A stretch of DNA of 64,000 bases from a virus (taxonomy: Duplodnaviria > Caudoviricetes): IMG/VR virus record IMGVR_UViG_3300028805_000057, positions 32,001 through 96,000 of that record. The stretch is one strand, 5' to 3'. Of the stretch, positions 14,860 through 35,367 are shown piece by piece; within the stretch, counting starts at the first letter, position 1, and each line of letters opens with the position of its first letter. Below the pieces are notes generated by a model. That model did no database searches, was not told the origin of the DNA, and worked only from the letters and a program-made list of their open reading frames with translations. The position numbers were made by a program, and so were the translations under genes.

Positions 14860-15540
14860 TTGGTTGAGAAAGTGCAAGGCGAAGTTGTGAGCATTGGTAA
14901 TAAGAATGTTAAAGATGAAACATTAGCACCAGTTATCTCAAATGCAGCAACAGTAAAAAAGACAAGTGGATTAAAGAAATTATGGAGAGGATTCTTTGCA
15001 GAAGACTTTAAGACAGTTCGCGGTAGTGTAATGGAGACAGTTATTAAGCCAAGTATTAAGTCAGGTATAGCAAATGCAATCACAAGTGCAGTATATATGT
15101 GGTTATTTGGTAAAAATGGTTATAGTAATGCTCCAGGAGGAATATTTAGACCATTATTGTCAGGTGGTGCAGTATCTTATAATGGTATCACAAGAATCCA
15201 AAATGGTCAAGTTGTAACAAGTCCTAAGGTAAGTATTGGTAATGATGCAAATTTTGGAAGGTATACGGCAGCTGAAGTATATGATCCTGAATATATAAGA
15301 TATGCAAGTTATCAAGATGCAGTAAATGTTCTTGAAGGATTAAGAGAACGTATTGGTAAGTATCAGGTTGCAACAGTAAAGAACTTATTTGATTTAAGTG
15401 GTCAAATTGGATATGAAATGGTTCTTCAGAATTGGGGTTGGTATGGTATTGAATGGTATCGTATTGTTCCAGTAGGAGATGGTACATGGATTCTTAGATT
15501 GCCACAGCCGACAGCTTTGAATGGAACTATGACTAAATAA
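14860..15540 (+). CDS. Conserved phage protein
   Basis: SD AAAGGAG, TTG start; C-terminal A..VL..L...I.KY..ATV..LFDL.G...WGW...LP.P. Confidence 0.7.
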   Translation: MVEKVQGEVVSIGNKNVKDETLAPVISNAATVKKTSGLKKLWRGFFAEDFKTVRGSVMETVIKPSIKSGIANAITSAVYMWLFGKNGYSNAPGGIFRPLLSGGAVSYNGITRIQNGQVVTSPKVSIGNDANFGRYTAAEVYDPEYIRYASYQDAVNVLEGLRERIGKYQVATVKNLFDLSGQIGYEMVLQNWGWYGIEWYRIVPVGDGTWILRLPQPTALNGTMTK

Positions 15541-19810: not shown

Positions 19811-19941
19811 TTCTACAATACCTCTGTAACGCACAGATTTGCCCGTAAAGGCCTGTTTGGGTATTTTATAGTATATTTATAGGGTAAAACATGAAATAGG
19901 CCTAAATGGGCATTCTGGTGCGTCAGAAGGGCATTCTAGAA
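19811..19941. repeat. Dispersed palindrome copy 2
   Basis: AATACCTCTGTAACGCACAGATTTGCCCGTAAAGGCCTGTTTGG ... AAATAGGCCTAAATGGGCATTCTGGTGCGT. Confidence 0.9.
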
Positions 19942-19952
19942 AAGGAGATAAT

Positions 19953-28897: not shown

Positions 28898-28960
28898 TAT
28901 TTATAAAGTGAGGTGATGCTAAGTGCAGTATTATTCATGTGATAAACAAGTCACCTTCAA

Positions 28961-29091
28961 TGTAGAAATACCTCTGTAACGCACAGATTTGCCCGTAAAG
29001 GCCTGTTTGGGTATTTTATGGTATATTTTATATGGTAAAACATGAAATAGGCCTAAATGGGCAAAATATGAGCTTACAGAGGTATTTGACA
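28961..29091. repeat. Dispersed palindrome copy 3
   Basis: Left 50+ nt identical to copy 2; outer AAATACCTCTGTAA / TTACAGAGGTATTT. Confidence 0.9.
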
Positions 29092-29231
29092 AAAAAAATG
29101 ATATTTATGGGAACGATAACAAAATCGATATTGGGTGTTATCATATTATAGTTGTATTAGGGTGGGTTTAACTATAATGATATTTGAATACTCGAACAAG
29201 AAAACACGAACAAGAAAAGGAGAAAACAAAA

Positions 29232-29744
29232 ATGGCACAGAAGATTAACATCGCAGGCGCAAGAATTACATTTAAGAACTTTGCAGGAAGACCTACTGAT
29301 TGGAATAAGAAAGGTGGAGCAAGAGACTTTGCAGTTGTATTGGATACTTATGAGGATGTACAGGCTTTGATTGATATGGGATTCTCAGTAAAGTATTTCA
29401 AGAAGAAGGAAGAAACAGATCCTGATGTTCCGTTCTTAAAGGTTAAGGTTAACTTCAGATATAATGATGACGGTAGTGAATTACTTAGTCCTCATATCTA
29501 TATGATTAACAACAATAAGAAAGTTCTCATCACTCCTCAGACAGCTCAGATTCTTGATCAGGCAGATATTGCATATTGTGATATTGTTATCAGACCTTAT
29601 TATTATGAGGTTCAGGGTAAGGCAGGAGTCGCAGCTTATCTTGACAAGATGTATGTAAATATTGAGCAGGATGAATTTGAGAAGAAGTATGAGATGTATA
29701 ATGATCCTGAGGAAGAAGAAGCTGAAGAGATACCTTTTGAATAA
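29232..29744 (+). CDS. ssb: Single-stranded DNA-binding protein
   Basis: ARITFKNFAG...N..G.R.F; acidic tail ending EEIPFE; next to the replicase. Confidence 0.75.
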   Translation: MAQKINIAGARITFKNFAGRPTDWNKKGGARDFAVVLDTYEDVQALIDMGFSVKYFKKKEETDPDVPFLKVKVNFRYNDDGSELLSPHIYMINNNKKVLITPQTAQILDQADIAYCDIVIRPYYYEVQGKAGVAAYLDKMYVNIEQDEFEKKYEMYNDPEEEEAEEIPFE

Positions 29745-29933
29745 TCATTGGATAACTTGTTTAACCGATGCGTGATATAATTGCAGTTTGGCGAAGACAA
29801 AGTGTTTTGAATGATTAAAGATATTCTGTAATATTAGGTGACATGTACAAGCGAAAAGTGTAGTAGCTTAGAGGGTTTCAATTCCTAGTAAGTGATTAGA
29901 CTTACACAGAATAGCTTTAGAAAAATAATATTT

Positions 29934-30101
29934 GTTGGGATGGCGGAATAGACGCAGGAACAGCGGTAAAATAGTAGACGCGCACGGTGTGAAAATACTT
30001 TCACACACTACGTGTGAATGTCCTGAGATGGCTAGAGTTCCTATAAGCCATAAAACTGAAGCAGGATCTTTCATGTAAGGTGCAAATCCTTACTCCCAAT
30101 A
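29934..30101 (+). ncRNA. tRNA-like RNA with ~110-nt insertion replacing the anticodon arm
   Basis: Acceptor GTTGGGA/TCCCAAT, D-like TGGCGGAATAGACGC, T arm GTAAGG-TGCAAAT-CCTTAC. Confidence 0.6.
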
Positions 30102-30121
30102 ATATTTGTGGAGATTAACTT

Positions 30122-30373
30122 ATGGATAAAACAATTTATATAGTAATATTTTCAAGTACATATGAAGGAACATATCAGGAACAAAATGTTGCAGCATTTG
30201 ATACTGAAGATAAAGCTAATGCGTTTCGTGAAAAATATGAAAAGATAATATCTGAAACTAATGAGTTTAAATTATTAAAAGAAGATATTCCTTATTTAAA
30301 TGAAGATTATTCTGAAAAACTTATTGGTAGAACTAATTGTCATTATCTTTGTCAGGCAATGCATTTACTTTAA
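30122..30373 (+). CDS. Hypothetical protein
   Basis: SD GGAG. Confidence 0.6.
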   Translation: MDKTIYIVIFSSTYEGTYQEQNVAAFDTEDKANAFREKYEKIISETNEFKLLKEDIPYLNEDYSEKLIGRTNCHYLCQAMHLL

Positions 30374-30387
30374 GATATTTTAGATAT

Positions 30388-30514
30388 TCTAGAATACCTC
30401 TCAGACGCACCAGAATGCCCGTAAAGGCCTGTTTGGGGGTTTTATGATATATTTATAGGGTAAAACATGAAACCGGTCTAAATGAGGCTTCTGGTGCGTT
30501 ATAAGGGTATATGA
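30388..30514. repeat. Dispersed palindrome copy 4
   Basis: GAATACCTCTCAGACGCACCAGAATGCCCGTAAAGGCCTGTTTGG... Confidence 0.9.
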
Positions 30515-30529
30515 GGTTTAAAGATATTT

Positions 30530-30709
30530 ATGAAAATACAGAGAAAACTATTAACTATTGAACAAAAGCATGAAATCTGTACAAAATATTATGATAATTG
30601 TGAAGAATGTCCTTTATACTCAAAAGTGTTAAATCATTTCTGCATTTATAATTTAGATCAAGTACAATATGCTATTGACGATTATTTAAATGAAGAAATT
30701 GAGGTATAA
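30530..30709 (+). CDS. Small Cys-rich protein (59 aa)
   Basis: CTKYYDNCEECPL. Confidence 0.55.
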   Translation: MKIQRKLLTIEQKHEICTKYYDNCEECPLYSKVLNHFCIYNLDQVQYAIDDYLNEEIEV

Positions 30710-30711
30710 CT

Positions 30712-30882
30712 ATGTTAGCATATAATGTTCATGTAGATAATGATAATGAAGTTTATTGTATTGTTGCACCTACAGAAAAAGAAGCTATTGAATATGCTAT
30801 AGAACTTTATAAAAAAGATTATGGAACTGAAGTAACTGAAGAAGATTGTAAGGTTATTTGGAACTATGATGAAGATTATTAA
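30712..30882 (+). CDS. Hypothetical protein (56 aa)
   Basis: SD GAGGT. Confidence 0.55.
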   Translation: MLAYNVHVDNDNEVYCIVAPTEKEAIEYAIELYKKDYGTEVTEEDCKVIWNYDEDY

Positions 30883-30936
30883 TCAGGAAATGCCCTTGTA
30901 ACGATAACACTTCACAAGTGAACTGTAGTTCGTTAC

Positions 30937-31060
30937 TACAATACCTCTGTAACGCTCTATTTTGCCCGTAAAGGCCTGTTTGGTATAATTGTGGTATAAA
31001 TCTACCCTAAAATACTAAATGGGCCTAAATGAGGCTTTAAATGCGTTACAGAGGCATATT
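30937..31060. repeat. Dispersed palindrome copy 5
   Basis: AATACCTCTGTAACGC...TGCCCGTAAAGGCCTGTTTGG...GCGTTACAGAGGCAT. Confidence 0.9.
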
Positions 31061-31077
31061 AAGGAAAGGAGATAAAT

Positions 31078-31230
31078 ATGGATAATGAAGTTAATATAGA
31101 AAGAGTTAACAAAATTTTAAATTTTGCGATATGTTGGGCTGATGATACTGTAGATTTAATACGTAATGGTTATACTGAAGATGAAATAATTGAAGCAGTT
31201 AAAACATTATTTAAAGAAGAAGGTAAATAA
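31078..31230 (+). CDS. Hypothetical protein (50 aa)
   Basis: SD AAAGGAG. Confidence 0.5.
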   Translation: MDNEVNIERVNKILNFAICWADDTVDLIRNGYTEDEIIEAVKTLFKEEGK

Positions 31231-31231
31231 T

Positions 31232-31447
31232 ATGAATATAGAAGATATACAAGAACTTTCAACAAGAGCTAAAAATTCATTAATTAGAAACGGTTATTTA
31301 ACTCTTGAAGATATTAATAAAACTAATTTTTATGATATATTTGCTTTACCTTGTTTTAAGAAAACTGTAAAAAATATGAAAATTATACTTAAAGTTATGC
31401 ATGAAAATGGTTATTCTTATTGGGGAATTGGACATCCAATAAAATAA
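31232..31447 (+). CDS. RNA polymerase alpha-CTD-like protein
   Basis: IEDIQELSTRAKNSLIRNGYLTLEDI resembles the RpoA CTD consensus IEEL.LSVR..NCL.R.GI.T..DL. Confidence 0.65.
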   Translation: MNIEDIQELSTRAKNSLIRNGYLTLEDINKTNFYDIFALPCFKKTVKNMKIILKVMHENGYSYWGIGHPIK

Positions 31448-31468
31448 TATTTAAGGAGACAATATAAT

Positions 31469-32089
31469 ATGAGAAAAATACCTACATTATTGGAAAGAAT
31501 ATATGAAAATAATAGAGTTGTTGCAATAAAAAGTACATTAAGTGATAAAAGATTACAAGTTGTATTAGATGGTAAATGTATTGCTACTGTCAAGATTGAT
31601 GGTTCTTGTTGTGCTGTAATTGATAATAAATGGTATAAGAGATACGATGCTAAAGCTGGTAAGAAAATTCCAGAAGGTGCAATACCTTGTCAAGATACTC
31701 CAGATCCTATTACAGGTCATTGGCCTCATTGGGTTGAACTTAATCCAGATAAAGCAGAAGATAAATGGTATATTATTGCTTTTAATAATTATCGTGAATT
31801 ATATAAAATTGAAAGTGGCGACAAATGGGATCCAATAACATATGAAGCTATTGGTCCGCATTTCCAAGGTAATCCATATAAATTAGAAAAAGATACTTTG
31901 TATAAGCATGGTGTTAGTGTTATTGAAGAATTATCTAATAAGCCATTAACAATAGATATTCTTAGAGAGTATTTATATAATAATGAAATAGAAGGAATAG
32001 TATTTTGGTTCACCGATCCTACAGGTAGCTGTCCAATTTGTAAAATAAAAAGAAGTGACTTTGGTTTCAAGTGGCCTGTTAAGGATTAA
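31469..32089 (+). CDS. RNA ligase-like nucleotidyltransferase (DUF5565/RLIG1-like)
   Basis: ATVKIDGSCC (KxDG), GHWPHW, TYEAIGP, EGIVF, KIKRSDFG. Confidence 0.75.
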   Translation: MRKIPTLLERIYENNRVVAIKSTLSDKRLQVVLDGKCIATVKIDGSCCAVIDNKWYKRYDAKAGKKIPEGAIPCQDTPDPITGHWPHWVELNPDKAEDKWYIIAFNNYRELYKIESGDKWDPITYEAIGPHFQGNPYKLEKDTLYKHGVSVIEELSNKPLTIDILREYLYNNEIEGIVFWFTDPTGSCPICKIKRSDFGFKWPVKD

Positions 32090-32114
32090 AGATATTTGAA
32101 GGAGAAATAAAAAT

Positions 32115-32396
32115 ATGACTTTTGGTGCATTAAAAGAAATAATAGATAAAAATAAAATTCCGGATGATGTTTTATTATTATCTCATAGCGGATGGGAATG
32201 CGATGCAACACATATGGATGGAATATGGTATTGCAAAGATAAAAATGTAATTGTTTTTACACAAGGAGATGATCCTGAATTTGATTTTAAAGAATCACAA
32301 GATGATCTTAATATAGCACTTCGTGATCATTTTAAAGATTATAGACGTATGAAGTTTGTTAAATTAAATGGTATTGATGCTGTAACAATAAAATGA
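32115..32396 (+). CDS. Hypothetical protein
   Basis: SD AAGGAG; SGWECDAT. Confidence 0.65.
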   Translation: MTFGALKEIIDKNKIPDDVLLLSHSGWECDATHMDGIWYCKDKNVIVFTQGDDPEFDFKESQDDLNIALRDHFKDYRRMKFVKLNGIDAVTIK

Positions 32397-32414
32397 TATT
32401 TAAAGGAGAATAAT

Positions 32415-32657
32415 ATGGGTTTAAATGATTTTTATAAATATTTAGAAAGTAAATTAATACAAGATTATATTGTTGAACTTCGTTATAAATATTTTTATGA
32501 AACCGGTTGGCGTTATAGTAATGAGATTCTTGAATGGGATCCTGATTTAAAAGTTTATGAATGGCGTAATGATTGGGATGAAGGTTATGATAAAGTTGAA
32601 GTATTAGGTTACATAGCAATCGCAAATGTAAAAGTTCCGAGATTTGAAGGAGAATAA
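32415..32657 (+). CDS. Hypothetical protein
   Basis: SD AAGGAG; W.NDWDEG. Confidence 0.65.
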   Translation: MGLNDFYKYLESKLIQDYIVELRYKYFYETGWRYSNEILEWDPDLKVYEWRNDWDEGYDKVEVLGYIAIANVKVPRFEGE

Positions 32658-32660
32658 TTT

Positions 32661-33218
32661 ATGGGTAAAAAGAAATTTGATACCGGTACTATAACAATAA
32701 ATGATAAAGATAGATATGCATATAAGATTGTAAAATGTTGTGATAAAAATGGTAATGATTTAAAGTTTGATTATTTTTGTCATGACATTTATGCCATAAT
32801 ACGTTTGATAATACCTGAAGAAGCAATTATTGTAACTCCAAGTAATATAATTATAGAAACTAGGTCAAGGTCAGATTTATTTGTAAAAAGAAGATGTAAT
32901 AAATTATATTTTGATAGAGTTATGAGCTATTTTTATATAACGAATACAATACATGGCGGACCGACAATAGCAAGAATTTATACAAAAGATTTAGATAGGT
33001 TTTTAAAAGATGAACATTCAGACAGATCATTAATTGAATATCATAGCTATTATAGAAATTTTATAGAAAATTATCATATTATAACATATAAACAAAATAC
33101 ATTAATAAAACCTGCTGAAGGTTATTTAGACATGGATGTTTCAAAGGAATGTGCTTGTGGTTTACATTTCTTTTTTACTTTAAAAGAGTTGTATAACTAT
33201 TTAGATTATTTAATTTAA
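32661..33218 (+). CDS. DUF5758-like protein
   Basis: AYK...I.L.IP..A and C-terminal ECACGLHFF. Confidence 0.55.
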   Translation: MGKKKFDTGTITINDKDRYAYKIVKCCDKNGNDLKFDYFCHDIYAIIRLIIPEEAIIVTPSNIIIETRSRSDLFVKRRCNKLYFDRVMSYFYITNTIHGGPTIARIYTKDLDRFLKDEHSDRSLIEYHSYYRNFIENYHIITYKQNTLIKPAEGYLDMDVSKECACGLHFFFTLKELYNYLDYLI

Positions 33219-33236
33219 TAGTCAGGGAGGAATATA

Positions 33237-33443
33237 ATGAAATTAAATAAAATAGATGATATACTTTGTAAATATAATTTTAAATTATCAAATACAAACA
33301 TGAACAAAGATGATACTGATTCTGTTTATAATGAGTTTCGGAATAAAACACTTGATGAAATAGTACATGATTATGCAAATCAAAGAAATTGTATAAAAGA
33401 AATAATGAAAGTTTTATATAATGTTCGAGAAATTGATAGATGA
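33237..33443 (+). CDS. Hypothetical protein
   Basis: SD GGAGG. Confidence 0.55.
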   Translation: MKLNKIDDILCKYNFKLSNTNMNKDDTDSVYNEFRNKTLDEIVHDYANQRNCIKEIMKVLYNVREIDR

Positions 33444-33468
33444 TAATTTTGTAAAGGAGACAAATAAA

Positions 33469-33633
33469 ATGATGAAAATTGAGATTGAACTGAGTGAAAA
33501 AGATTTTGAAAAAATACGTAAAACTTCCATGTCTATTGACGATATGGATAATACCGTAATTGGCAGAGTTTATACATCGATAATAAAGGGATATAAAAAA
33601 GACCATCCTGAGGAATTTGGAGTAACTTCATAA
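33469..33633 (+). CDS. Hypothetical protein
   Basis: SD AAGGAG. Confidence 0.5.
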   Translation: MMKIEIELSEKDFEKIRKTSMSIDDMDNTVIGRVYTSIIKGYKKDHPEEFGVTS

Positions 33634-33656
33634 AAATAATTATATAGGAGAAGAAA

Positions 33657-34193
33657 ATGACAGATACAGAAATAAAACAAATAGAAACTATTTGCGAAGT
33701 AGCTAATATTAAAGATATTGGTGATTTAAGTGATGGTTATCATACATTTAATCAACTTTATCATCAAAGAGCTGTTTTGTTTGCAACTATTGTAAATCAG
33801 AATAAAGATATTTCATGGAAATCATTTAAGCATTCTGATGGTAAATATTGTTTTGACAGTAATGGTGAATGGTTTATTGTTGGCATTGATACACCAGAAG
33901 GTAGTTATACATATCATTATGAAAAGAGTTATTGGGATATGTTTAAATGCCAAGAATTAGAATGTGGTAAAGAATGGGATGGACATACTGAAGAAGATGT
34001 AACGAGATTATTGTCTTTAGAAAAGACAGATGACGAAGAAAAAGTTATAAAAACAGAATTTATTGATATAACACGTTATTGCCGTAAATATAAAAAGTGT
34101 GGTAATTGTGAAGAGGAATTTATGGAACAATATACTTATAGATGGTTCTTTTGTCCAAGATGTGGTGCAAAGTTTATTAATGTAACTCAATAA
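33657..34193 (+). CDS. Conserved phage protein (SDGYHTF..LY / WDGH) with C-terminal Zn ribbon
   Basis: DLSDGYHTFNQLYHQR, YTYHY, WDGHT; CGNC...FCPRCGAK. Confidence 0.7.
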   Translation: MTDTEIKQIETICEVANIKDIGDLSDGYHTFNQLYHQRAVLFATIVNQNKDISWKSFKHSDGKYCFDSNGEWFIVGIDTPEGSYTYHYEKSYWDMFKCQELECGKEWDGHTEEDVTRLLSLEKTDDEEKVIKTEFIDITRYCRKYKKCGNCEEEFMEQYTYRWFFCPRCGAKFINVTQ

Positions 34194-34210
34194 AAATATT
34201 TTAGGAGGAA

Positions 34211-34393
34211 ATGATGAAACAAATTGTTTATACAGTAATACAATATTTTCCTAATACTAATGAAGAACCCATAGTTACAGTTTTTGATAATAAGGATAAT
34301 GCTGAATCTTGTTTTAAATATTATAAAAGTCTTGGTAGAATGGTGTGCATGGATGAATGTCTTGTATGTAAGACGTTTAAAATACTTTTATAA
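34211..34393 (+). CDS. Hypothetical protein
   Basis: SD AGGAGG. Confidence 0.55.
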   Translation: MMKQIVYTVIQYFPNTNEEPIVTVFDNKDNAESCFKYYKSLGRMVCMDECLVCKTFKILL

Positions 34394-34418
34394 GATGAAA
34401 ACATTTTAGGAGAAAAAG

Positions 34419-34538
34419 ATGAATGATTTAGCAATTACAGGAATATTCATTGTTTTAATGACTATACTCACAGTCGGTTATAATCATATTGTAACTAAAA
34501 TTGAAAAGAAGAAGAAACTAAATAAAAACACAGATTAA
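34419..34538 (+). CDS. Small membrane peptide (39 aa)
   Basis: SD AGGAG; TM then basic tail. Confidence 0.5.
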   Translation: MNDLAITGIFIVLMTILTVGYNHIVTKIEKKKKLNKNTD

Positions 34539-34553
34539 TAAATGATATTTTGT

Positions 34554-34626
34554 AGCCCCTTAGCCAAGTGGTGAAGGCGGCGGTCTTTGACACCGTTATT
34601 CACTGGTTCGAATCCAGTAGGGGCTG
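34554..34626 (+). tRNA. tRNA-Gln (UUG)
   Basis: Acceptor AGCCCCT/AGGGGCT, D arm GCC..GGC, anticodon arm GCGGT-CTTTGAC-ACCGT, T arm ACTGG-TTCGAAT-CCAGT; CCA not encoded. Confidence 0.92.
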
Positions 34627-34750
34627 TAATGCGCACGGATGGCCGTGGACACAATGGCAGTTGAAGCACAGAGGAGCTTTTGGTGCGCTATATAAATAAA
34701 TATGGGCCTCAAGCTGAAAGTGGTATGTCCCTCATGAGTAAGCAATTATC

Positions 34751-34868
34751 ATTCAGGTGGCGGAATAGGTAGACGTTTTTAGTGATAAGGTTAAAGATAT
34801 ATAAAACCATTAAGAATAATCTTAGCAAAACTTTATATCATATAAGGTGCAGATCCTTATCCTGAATG
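34751..34868 (+). ncRNA. tRNA-like RNA with non-canonical anticodon region
   Basis: Acceptor ATTCAGG/CCTGAAT, Leu-type D arm TGGCGGAATAGGTAGACG, T arm ATAAGG-TGCAGAT-CCTTAT. Confidence 0.6.
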
Positions 34869-34891
34869 ATATTTTAAAAAGGAGAAATAAT

Positions 34892-35212
34892 ATGGGAAAT
34901 AGTATTTATTATGGAATTTATTCAAAAGAATGTAATAATGATAAAGTATTGCCTTATTTGGATATAGACTATATTTGTGTTGATTTAAATATTAGTAAGG
35001 ATTCGCAAAGAGAGTTCTTTAACATTTTGAGAAAGTATTCTATTGAAAAAGGAGAAACTGTAGAAAGATATTTTGATTTGCATTATTATCATTGTTTTAT
35101 AATTACATACTACGAAGATTATTTTAATTTTTATAATGAAGTTAATGTAGTTTTACCTGATGATATAGAATGTGATTTTGATAATGATATTTTGATATTT
35201 TGGGTAGTGTAA
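34892..35212 (+). CDS. Hypothetical protein
   Basis: SD AAGGAG. Confidence 0.6.
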   Translation: MGNSIYYGIYSKECNNDKVLPYLDIDYICVDLNISKDSQREFFNILRKYSIEKGETVERYFDLHYYHCFIITYYEDYFNFYNEVNVVLPDDIECDFDNDILIFWVV

Positions 35213-35224
35213 AAGACTGCTCTT

Positions 35225-35367
35225 CGCGCACGTATACGCGTATGTACGCGCACACGCCCGCCTAGCGCATCCGCGTGATCACGCCCACGCACGCATTATG
35301 CACGCACGCCCGGACCCGCGCTACACGCACGTGCGCCTGAGTTTAATGTAATGTTTCTTACGCGCGA
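35225..35367. repeat. GC-rich alternating purine-pyrimidine (CACGC/CGCG) tract
   Basis: CGCGCACGTATACGCGTATGTACGCGCACACGCCC...; sharp GC island in an AT-rich genome. Confidence 0.75.

Follow-up and report, generated by a model that had tools for sequence, protein, structure and literature searches.

A large family of transfer-RNA-Leu-framed RNAs without an anticodon arm in phages and prophages of Bacillota

The DNA analysed here, called the window throughout, is a stretch of 64,000 nucleotides (nt) that comprises bases 32001-96000 of the 147,894-base-pair (bp) IMG/VR virus record IMGVR_UViG_3300028805_000057, an uncultured phage. The window has a G+C content of about 30% and carries every gene on the + strand; the helicase of the phage has its nearest cultured match in a Faecalibacterium phage (55% identity). 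At two places, called element 1 and element 2, the acceptor stem, the leucine-type D arm and the T arm of a transfer RNA (tRNA), which the original prediction had described as shared by both, can be read directly from the sequence, and they enclose a variable interior referred to as the insert, which takes the place of the anticodon and variable arms. Both elements are members of an RNA family that is very large, is absent from Rfam and occurs in phages and prophages of Bacillota. Their parts are listed below in window coordinates; bit scores refer to the family covariance model R1.

29934-30101, + strand: element 1, anticodon-less tRNA-Leu-shaped RNA gene, atypical family member (R1, 52.9 bits)
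29934-29940, + strand: 5' strand of the acceptor stem of element 1, partner 30094-30100 (from the sequence)
29943-29955, + strand: D arm of element 1, GCG / CGC stem and short loop without G18G19 (sequence and family alignment)
29956-30074, + strand: insert of element 1, 119 nt, three predicted hairpin domains, YCAU junction at its end (constrained fold)
29963-29981, + strand: second D-arm-like copy within the insert of element 1 (alignment and fold)
30075-30093, + strand: T arm of element 1, 6-bp stem (30075-30080 / 30088-30093) and loop UGCAAAU
30094-30101, + strand: 3' strand of the acceptor stem of element 1 and discriminator A (sequence)
34751-34868, + strand: element 2, typical family member (R1, 79.9 bits)
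34760-34776, + strand: D arm of element 2, family consensus except for a G10.U25 pair (sequence and alignment)
34777-34841, + strand: insert of element 2, 65 nt, AT-rich, one small hairpin, unlike the insert of element 1 (fold)
34842-34860, + strand: T arm of element 2, 6-bp stem (34842-34847 / 34855-34860) with outer pair A-U, loop UGCAGAU

A degenerate pattern consisting of the D arm, 40-70 nt and the T loop was scanned over IMG/VR and matched at least 118 loci, with the chance expectation estimated at a few. In all pattern matches listed, U8 is invariant and the 19-nt D arm near-invariant, the acceptor stem has 7 bp and a conserved YCAU junction lies directly 5' of the T stem. Among the 117 listed copies with T-arm counts, 112 have the T loop UGCAAAU and 113 a sixth T-stem pair; the T stem is exactly 6 bp long, since a seventh pair is present in just 2 copies. 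Acceptor and T stems thus add up to a 13-bp coaxial helix (7 + 6), and position 55 is G throughout the family. Compared with a canonical tRNA, the 7-bp acceptor, U8 and a D arm with G18G19 are retained (the D loop of element 1 being the exception), whereas the canonical 12-bp helix (7 + 5) and UUCRANY loop are replaced by 7 + 6 bp and UGCAAAU. Element 2 shows every family feature and element 1 all except the GG of the D loop.

Covariation was determined in an alignment of 93 members with distinct inserts. The covarying stems that had been predicted from the two copies of the window (wholly different acceptor sequences, both paired; outermost T-stem pair G-C in element 1 versus A-U in element 2) turned out to be a family-wide property: 97.2% of the stem cells are paired, compared to 72.1% in shuffled alignments and 35-45% when the partners are slid, and 395 cells carry double changes versus 106 +/- 9 in shuffles. 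All seven acceptor pairs show double changes across the family. As G.U pairs exceed A.C combinations in the stems (44 versus 13), the gene-sense strand is the folded molecule.

The covariance model R1 was built from the family alignment with all four copies of this genome in the training set. In the 147.9-kb genome it matches exactly these four copies (79.9, 75.4, 75.2 and 52.9 bits, scores that are somewhat inflated because the copies are rows of the training alignment) and does not match tRNA-Gln(UUG), which is the only canonical tRNA of the genome according to ARAGORN and Rfam. Both elements of the original prediction are therefore real, but the genome carries four copies rather than two. 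Elements 3 and 4, located by a motif scan, lie outside the window at genome positions 101006-101115 and 104826-104957 (L122:5006-5115 and L122:8826-8957). Checks outside the R1 training set were provided by a regular-expression match and by an untrained member in phage SPP1, located between head genes 9 and 11 and scoring 81.5 bits. A member inside the tRNA array of Enterococcus phage EFGrNG scored 51.4 bits and a genuine tRNA-Leu 25.1 bits.

Cultured phages of Enterococcus, Lactobacillus, Listeria, Leuconostoc, Weissella and Bacillus carry the family, which is unannotated in the records listed; in one Listeria phage record a hypothetical protein is annotated beneath the family match. Bacterial genomes contributed 80 loci, almost all of them in Bacillota, and most members reside in prophage-like contigs of 30-60 kb. 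Rfam 15 was run at gathering and at permissive thresholds (E <= 10) on the window and on 20 other family loci, and no match was obtained on the elements or inserts of the window or of the 20 further loci; the elements and inserts matched no riboswitch, ribozyme, transfer-messenger RNA (tmRNA), Y-RNA or any other family of this release. Literature searches, including searches with the literal D-arm and T-loop sequences, returned no description of the family, and the SPP1 genome paper mentions no RNA between genes 9 and 11.

The individual folds of the two elements differ. The acceptor stem of element 1 consists of six Watson-Crick pairs and G1.U72 and is prolonged by two further bp at -1/73 and -2/74, that of element 2 (34751-34757 / 34861-34867, discriminator G) by three extra pairs, in line with the original prediction of acceptor stems exceeding 7 bp. 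The unrelated interiors it had reported were likewise found, with lengths of 119 and 65 nt, and the hairpins it had named are present in the folds. The folding energy of element 1 is below that of all 200 shuffles (z -3.35), its unconstrained fold yields the acceptor, D and T arms, and its insert by itself reaches z -2.36 when the constrained fold is compared to shuffles; no relative of this insert was found among cultured phages, and element 1 gave neither an ARAGORN call nor an Rfam match. The family consensus has GG in the D loop where element 1 has none, and MAFFT placed the copy at 29963-29981, which forms its own hairpin in the fold, and not 29943-29955 on the family D arm. The fold energy of element 2 is not separable from that of shuffles (z -0.8), and as energy alone is uninformative here, the support for element 2 comes from the comparison with other members.

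The damaged D loop and duplicated D-arm segment of element 1, together with the lack of counterparts of elements 1, 3 and 4 in the closest relative of the phage, are what one might expect of decaying, functionless tRNA-Leu pseudogenes. For the family this explanation is already refuted, and we give it practically no weight: relatives show conserved, covarying structure (97% stem-cell pairing and hundreds of compensatory changes in the 93 members), and conservation extends to the very features that depart from tRNA, namely the T stem of 6 bp and the loop UGCAAAU.

The statement that the elements cannot be ordinary decoding tRNAs was confirmed: ARAGORN called neither the four copies of this genome nor any of 204 family copies, and Rfam gave no match. 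The RNAs have a tRNA shape that either descends from tRNA-Leu or is patterned on it. The anticodon arm of canonical tRNAs (5-bp stem and 7-nt loop, positions 27-43) is not present in the elements, which for lack of it cannot decode. One could still think of intron-containing tRNA precursors in which the insert is removed and the halves are rejoined, for example by the RNA ligase (phrog_14301, Pfam RLIG1) encoded at 31469-32089 between elements 1 and 2, as had been proposed. With its intron mode, ARAGORN does give a forced call on element 3, namely tRNA-Arg interrupted at position 34/35 by an intron of 13 nt; this position is non-canonical, the anticodon stem is mismatched and a base at 66 is left unpaired, and we judged the call spurious because just 2 of the 204 members give any, and these are weak. 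Splicing by the ligase found no support: neither flank of the inserts retains an anticodon stem across the family, and no ligase is found among the recurrent neighbours of the family in small prophage-like contigs. Group I introns of tRNA-Leu genes (about 200 nt or more, with a P1-P9 core) were considered and rejected, the inserts being far below this size, not flanked by an anticodon stem and without match to a ribozyme family. Taken together we regard an intron as highly improbable. Neither did a decoy for anticodon nucleases, another of the roles put forward originally, hold up, for the inserts show no enrichment of anticodon-arm-like hairpins (5-bp stem, 7-nt U-N3-R loop; 6 observed, 3.9 +/- 2.0 expected).

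Typing of 121 copies yielded 91 unrelated insert types with a median length of 58 nt and a range of 37-119 nt (54-119 nt in this genome). Within a single phage lineage one frame carries different inserts, one insert occurs on different acceptor stems (loci L004, L011 and L028), and the hairpin of one insert family has undergone compensatory changes, alignment row L111 with its wrong coordinates being disregarded. Of the roles initially suggested, a tRNA-mimic scaffold fits this anatomy of constant frame and changing insert best; that the insert is a cargo we infer from the same anatomy. Our preferred reading, to which we assign a probability of roughly 55%, is that the family consists of non-decoding, tRNA-framed stable RNAs which are excised by tRNA-processing enzymes and whose insert is the working part, the mechanism being a proposal.

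In this proposal the host enzymes that mature tRNAs would use the frame as a handle. The 5' end would be generated by RNase P and the 3' end by RNase Z, which would cut behind the discriminator; CCA addition would follow, and the RNA would in this way be released from polycistronic phage transcripts or tRNA arrays. The compact elbow would stabilise the excised RNA. Its lack of an anticodon arm, together with the additional T-stem pair and G55, would exclude it from translation and probably from efficient charging with leucine. The insert would be the effector, with a trans-acting role directed at a partner that differs from host to host or among competing phages. Indirect signs of tRNA-like processing are the copies in or near tRNA arrays (in EFGrNG, in the closest relative 6 nt behind tRNA-Gln and, 123 nt behind tRNA-Gln, in this genome), the lack of a promoter at a fixed distance and the paucity of own terminators, a terminator-like hairpin being present within 80 nt in only 10 of 93 members. 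In 56% the discriminator is followed by U, which B. subtilis RNase Z prefers at this position in precursors that lack CCA. A precedent is T5 RNA1, which likewise has a leucine-type D arm and is annotated as a stable RNA in its database record.

Chief among the alternatives is an element that acts in cis, as a processing signal or insulator: cleavage by RNase P and RNase Z would separate messages and set their stability, for example by uncoupling the message of a late activator from the packaging operon, and the insert would be functionless. Neighbouring genes were clustered for 201 copies with the two nearest genes on each side. In the one dominant arrangement, found for 81 copies (40%, a share that does not differ between viral contigs and bacterial genomes), a late-gene activator (phrog_36 or phrog_248, ArpU/RinA/Alt-like) lies on one side of the element and HNH endonuclease, small-terminase or large-terminase genes on the other, all in the same orientation, which places the element at the head of the late operon. 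Some of the remaining copies directly follow tRNAs or other family members, and no single neighbour protein was found to be conserved family-wide. A cis element also agrees with the scarcity of terminators and with the upstream regions, which display no positional -10 signal of a fixed-distance promoter.

Several further observations count against our preferred reading, and some of them fit such an element. The inserts are only mildly more structured than shuffles (median z -0.84; 11 of 94 below -2), and a k-mer enrichment analysis returned only the 3' junction and helix-closing words, with no shared motif. Complementarity of the four inserts to their own phage genome is no better than that of shuffled inserts, so that no target is in sight within the phage. 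The acceptor helix runs into the flanks, with -1/73 paired in 60%, -2/74 in 65% and about 40% further out; an extended helix of this kind is not typical of RNase P substrates and may point to another maturation route or a role in cis. All four copies of this genome end 22-30 nt ahead of the start codon of the next gene, a distance that also fits a cis leader function. Finally, element 1 with its aberrant D loop lacking G18G19 may be impaired.

A mere cleavage signal, however, needs no near-invariant 19-nt D arm and T loop, as any tRNA would do, and both are kept from this genome with its G+C content of about 30% to far more G+C-rich prophages. Many copies are embedded in tRNA arrays and have no neighbouring messages that cleavage could set apart. 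Insert families turn up on more than one frame and have undergone compensatory changes, and the inserts are retained at 37-119 nt instead of being lost. We consequently rate a cis-acting element as unlikely and retain the tRNA-framed, trans-acting RNA as the better description.

The frame could alternatively be a mimic that is charged with leucine for a use other than decoding, such as a tmRNA-like action, an amino-acid donor or a sponge for leucyl-tRNA synthetase (LeuRS). Most identity elements of E. coli LeuRS are present in the frame, i.e. A14, A15-U48 (U48 being the U of the conserved YCAU junction), G18G19, G19-C56 and U54-A58, and LeuRS needs neither the anticodon nor the variable arm; a passage in PMC9976931, citing Larkin 2002, has tRNA-Leu variants without both arms still being charged. 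In E. coli, A73 is crucial for leucine charging, which is abolished by C73, and the G18:U55 contact is important for leucine identity (PMC9976931). The commonest discriminator of the family is A, yet A73 is found in just 53 of 93 members (57%), element 2 has G, and no conserved discriminator emerged in another register, that of the first unpaired 3' base. Because of the low share of A73 and of G at position 55, leucine charging is doubtful, and judged by these identity elements the family RNAs are probably not leucylated efficiently. No CCA is encoded and tmRNA features such as G3.U70 are missing. A tmRNA was rejected as a candidate for the elements themselves, both of which have U-A at pair 3-70 and no match to the Rfam tmRNA clan. 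A leucylated mimic is in our view quite improbable.

The surroundings of the copies were compared with the closest relative (L003), a complete 135.7-kb phage whose single-stranded DNA-binding protein is 95% identical. The following features are concerned.

29924-29941 and 30098-30115, + strand: 5' and 3' copies of an 18-nt direct repeat (16 of 18 positions identical)
29743-30368, + strand: 625-bp segment with element 1 and an 83-amino-acid open reading frame (ORF; 30122-30373), missing from the closest relative (BLAST versus L003)
34553-34627, + strand: tRNA-Gln(UUG), 123 nt 5' of element 2 (ARAGORN; Rfam, 66.9 bits)

The BLAST alignment to L003 skips from 29742 to 30369, and L003 has no family copy there. 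The 18-nt repeat brackets element 1 and duplicates the leader that precedes the ribosome-binding site of the next gene; none of the 93 members has a flank repeat longer than its exact core of 12 nt. In members L031 and L077, the sequence just 5' of the ribosome-binding site of the next gene is likewise repeated on both sides, and these flanking repeats, together with that of element 1, hint at an insertion that duplicated its target. In L003, the orthologue of element 2 (15347-15468) lies within a 97% identical block. This block of 700 bp (34182-34894) shows 96-99% identity to the relative, versus 81-84% in the flanking genes, which recent recombination explains as well as constraint on the insert of element 2 does. 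Directly behind the orthologue a 113-amino-acid ORF is inserted in L003.

L003 contains only two family copies, both located behind tRNA-Gln genes. The extra copy has the acceptor stem of element 2 with another insert and lies inside a 1.37-kb insertion. The two tRNA-Gln(UUG) genes (L003:14069-14142 and L003:14960-15034) each have a family copy behind them, with identical acceptor stems and different inserts, and L003 looks to have duplicated a module of tRNA plus element. Elements 3 and 4 have one acceptor stem in common and flank a divergent, tail-like gene of 1192 amino acids with a weak match to a phrog 'tail protein'; homology to the relative ends exactly at element 3. One of the T loops of elements 3 and 4 is a normal UUCAAAU and the other has a 2-nt insertion. 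About 1 kb 5' of element 3, an HNH endonuclease gene (phrog_374, E 5e-72; L122:3239-3958, genome 99239-99958) is present that is missing from the otherwise collinear relative and is probably a homing-endonuclease insertion.

Every copy in this pair of phages thus borders an insertion, a deletion or a mosaic junction, so the copies accompany small accessory cassettes or mark their position. This raises the question of whether the conserved arms are linkers at the DNA level, the identical D-arm and T-arm sequences of 19-20 nt serving as short homologies for the exchange of inserts or cassettes. Flank repeats of at least 8 nt are found in 5 of 93 members compared to 2.4 expected, a small excess, and tRNA regions are plastic in many phages anyway. 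Covariation and the excess of G.U pairs reveal selection on the folded sense RNA, for which a DNA site has no need. It is more probable that recombination is a by-product of sequence conservation than that it is the function, and we consider linkers as the primary role very doubtful.

Further features were noticed close to the elements. An intergenic unit of about 125-140 nt is repeated at 28960-29100, 30389-30512 and 30936-31059 and also at about 19818-19943; its predicted fold is a single very long hairpin (-60 kcal/mol, z -9.75). The spacer between tRNA-Gln and element 2 (34630-34690) has about 50% G+C, is closed by a 6-bp GCGCAC/GUGCGC stem and holds GGAUG and GGCAGUUGAAG (z -1.9; surrounding block 97% identical in the relative); it may be a second small RNA family. 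Just 3' of a 106-amino-acid ORF, a tract of about 115 nt (35215-35330; about 65% G+C, rich in ACGC/GCGC words) folds no better than shuffles and may serve as an array of protein-binding sites or resemble an origin. Elsewhere, Rfam matches were obtained in two viral contigs with family members (L026:230-335 and L034:2892-2961), with a 'drum' RNA (RF02958, 72 bits) about 125 nt behind a family member in one viral contig and a twister-sister ribozyme (44.7 bits) in another. The family loci seem to be small-RNA gene islands.

Among known systems, the species 1 and species 2 RNAs of phage T4 (rnaC, rnaD) are close to the family. To our knowledge, the tRNA-like stable RNAs of T4 and T5 have been known since the 1970s and no role has been assigned to them. 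T5 RNA1 (NC_005859, 30501-30644), annotated as 'tRNA-like stable RNA with unknown functions', is aligned end to end by R1 with 25.0 bits (E 2e-6), a score at the level of the genuine tRNA-Leu. Like the family members it is a phage RNA longer than a tRNA that lies within a tRNA gene cluster, and its acceptor, leucine-type D arm and T arm enclose a long interior without a usable anticodon arm. It differs in its T arm, which has 4-5 bp in the stem and the ordinary loop UUCAACU, and in its variant D stem, and it comes from a phage that infects Proteobacteria; by its architecture it is the same kind of object, but probably not a family member.

With class II tRNA-Leu (RF00005) the family shares U8, a 3-bp D stem, A15-U48, G18G19, the 7-bp acceptor and a 7-nt T loop with U54, C56 and A58, and its D arm is presumably about one base off that of E. 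coli tRNA-Leu. Unlike tRNA-Leu it has no anticodon arm, a T stem of 6 instead of 5 bp, G55 and A57, and no fixed discriminator. The likeness to tmRNA consists in an acceptor and a T arm that enclose a large non-tRNA interior and in an identity read by a synthetase for which the anticodon is irrelevant. The family differs from tmRNA in lacking G3.U70, in having a full D arm and an interior of 37-119 nt without conserved tag reading frame or series of pseudoknots, and in having no tmRNA match in Rfam. In the engineered tRNA scaffold of Ponchon and Dardel, a cargo RNA reportedly replaces the anticodon arm and the frame provides processing and protection from nucleases, the same mechanism that we propose for the family; it was built in the laboratory from tRNA-Lys or tRNA-Met and has the normal 7/5 helix, and a natural counterpart was not described in the literature searched. 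The ends of YrlA RNA (RF02553) lie in the stem that replaces the anticodon arm. YrlA, which is also present in some phages, is a non-coding RNA with a module mimicking the acceptor, T and D arms of tRNA (PMC4201824). Its topology is opposite to that of the family; YrlA had no Rfam match on the elements, nor were rsr or rtcB genes found as neighbours.

The family appears far larger than the RNAs of T4 and T5: its sharply defined and strongly selected frame is carried by hundreds of phages and prophages whose hosts are lactic acid bacteria, Listeria, Enterococcus, Bacillus and gut Clostridia. It also discloses an annotation gap, having been missed by Rfam, ARAGORN and the phage records. Since it occurs in tractable model phages, e.g. 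SPP1 and phi3T, the old question of the T4 and T5 RNAs becomes directly testable. If the inserts are functional modules, they would constitute a new class of phage effector RNAs and the family a naturally occurring equivalent of the biotechnological tRNA scaffold. A wider and more tentative idea, which we consider rather unlikely as it stands, is that phages of Bacillota share a universal RNA chassis derived from tRNA-Leu which might be processed by the host, ignored by translation and used to display interchangeable modules as decoys, sponges or inhibitors, with the arms doubling as recombination handles. If this were true, chassis modules directed against host defence or rival phages would be the RNA counterpart of swappable protein anti-defence genes.

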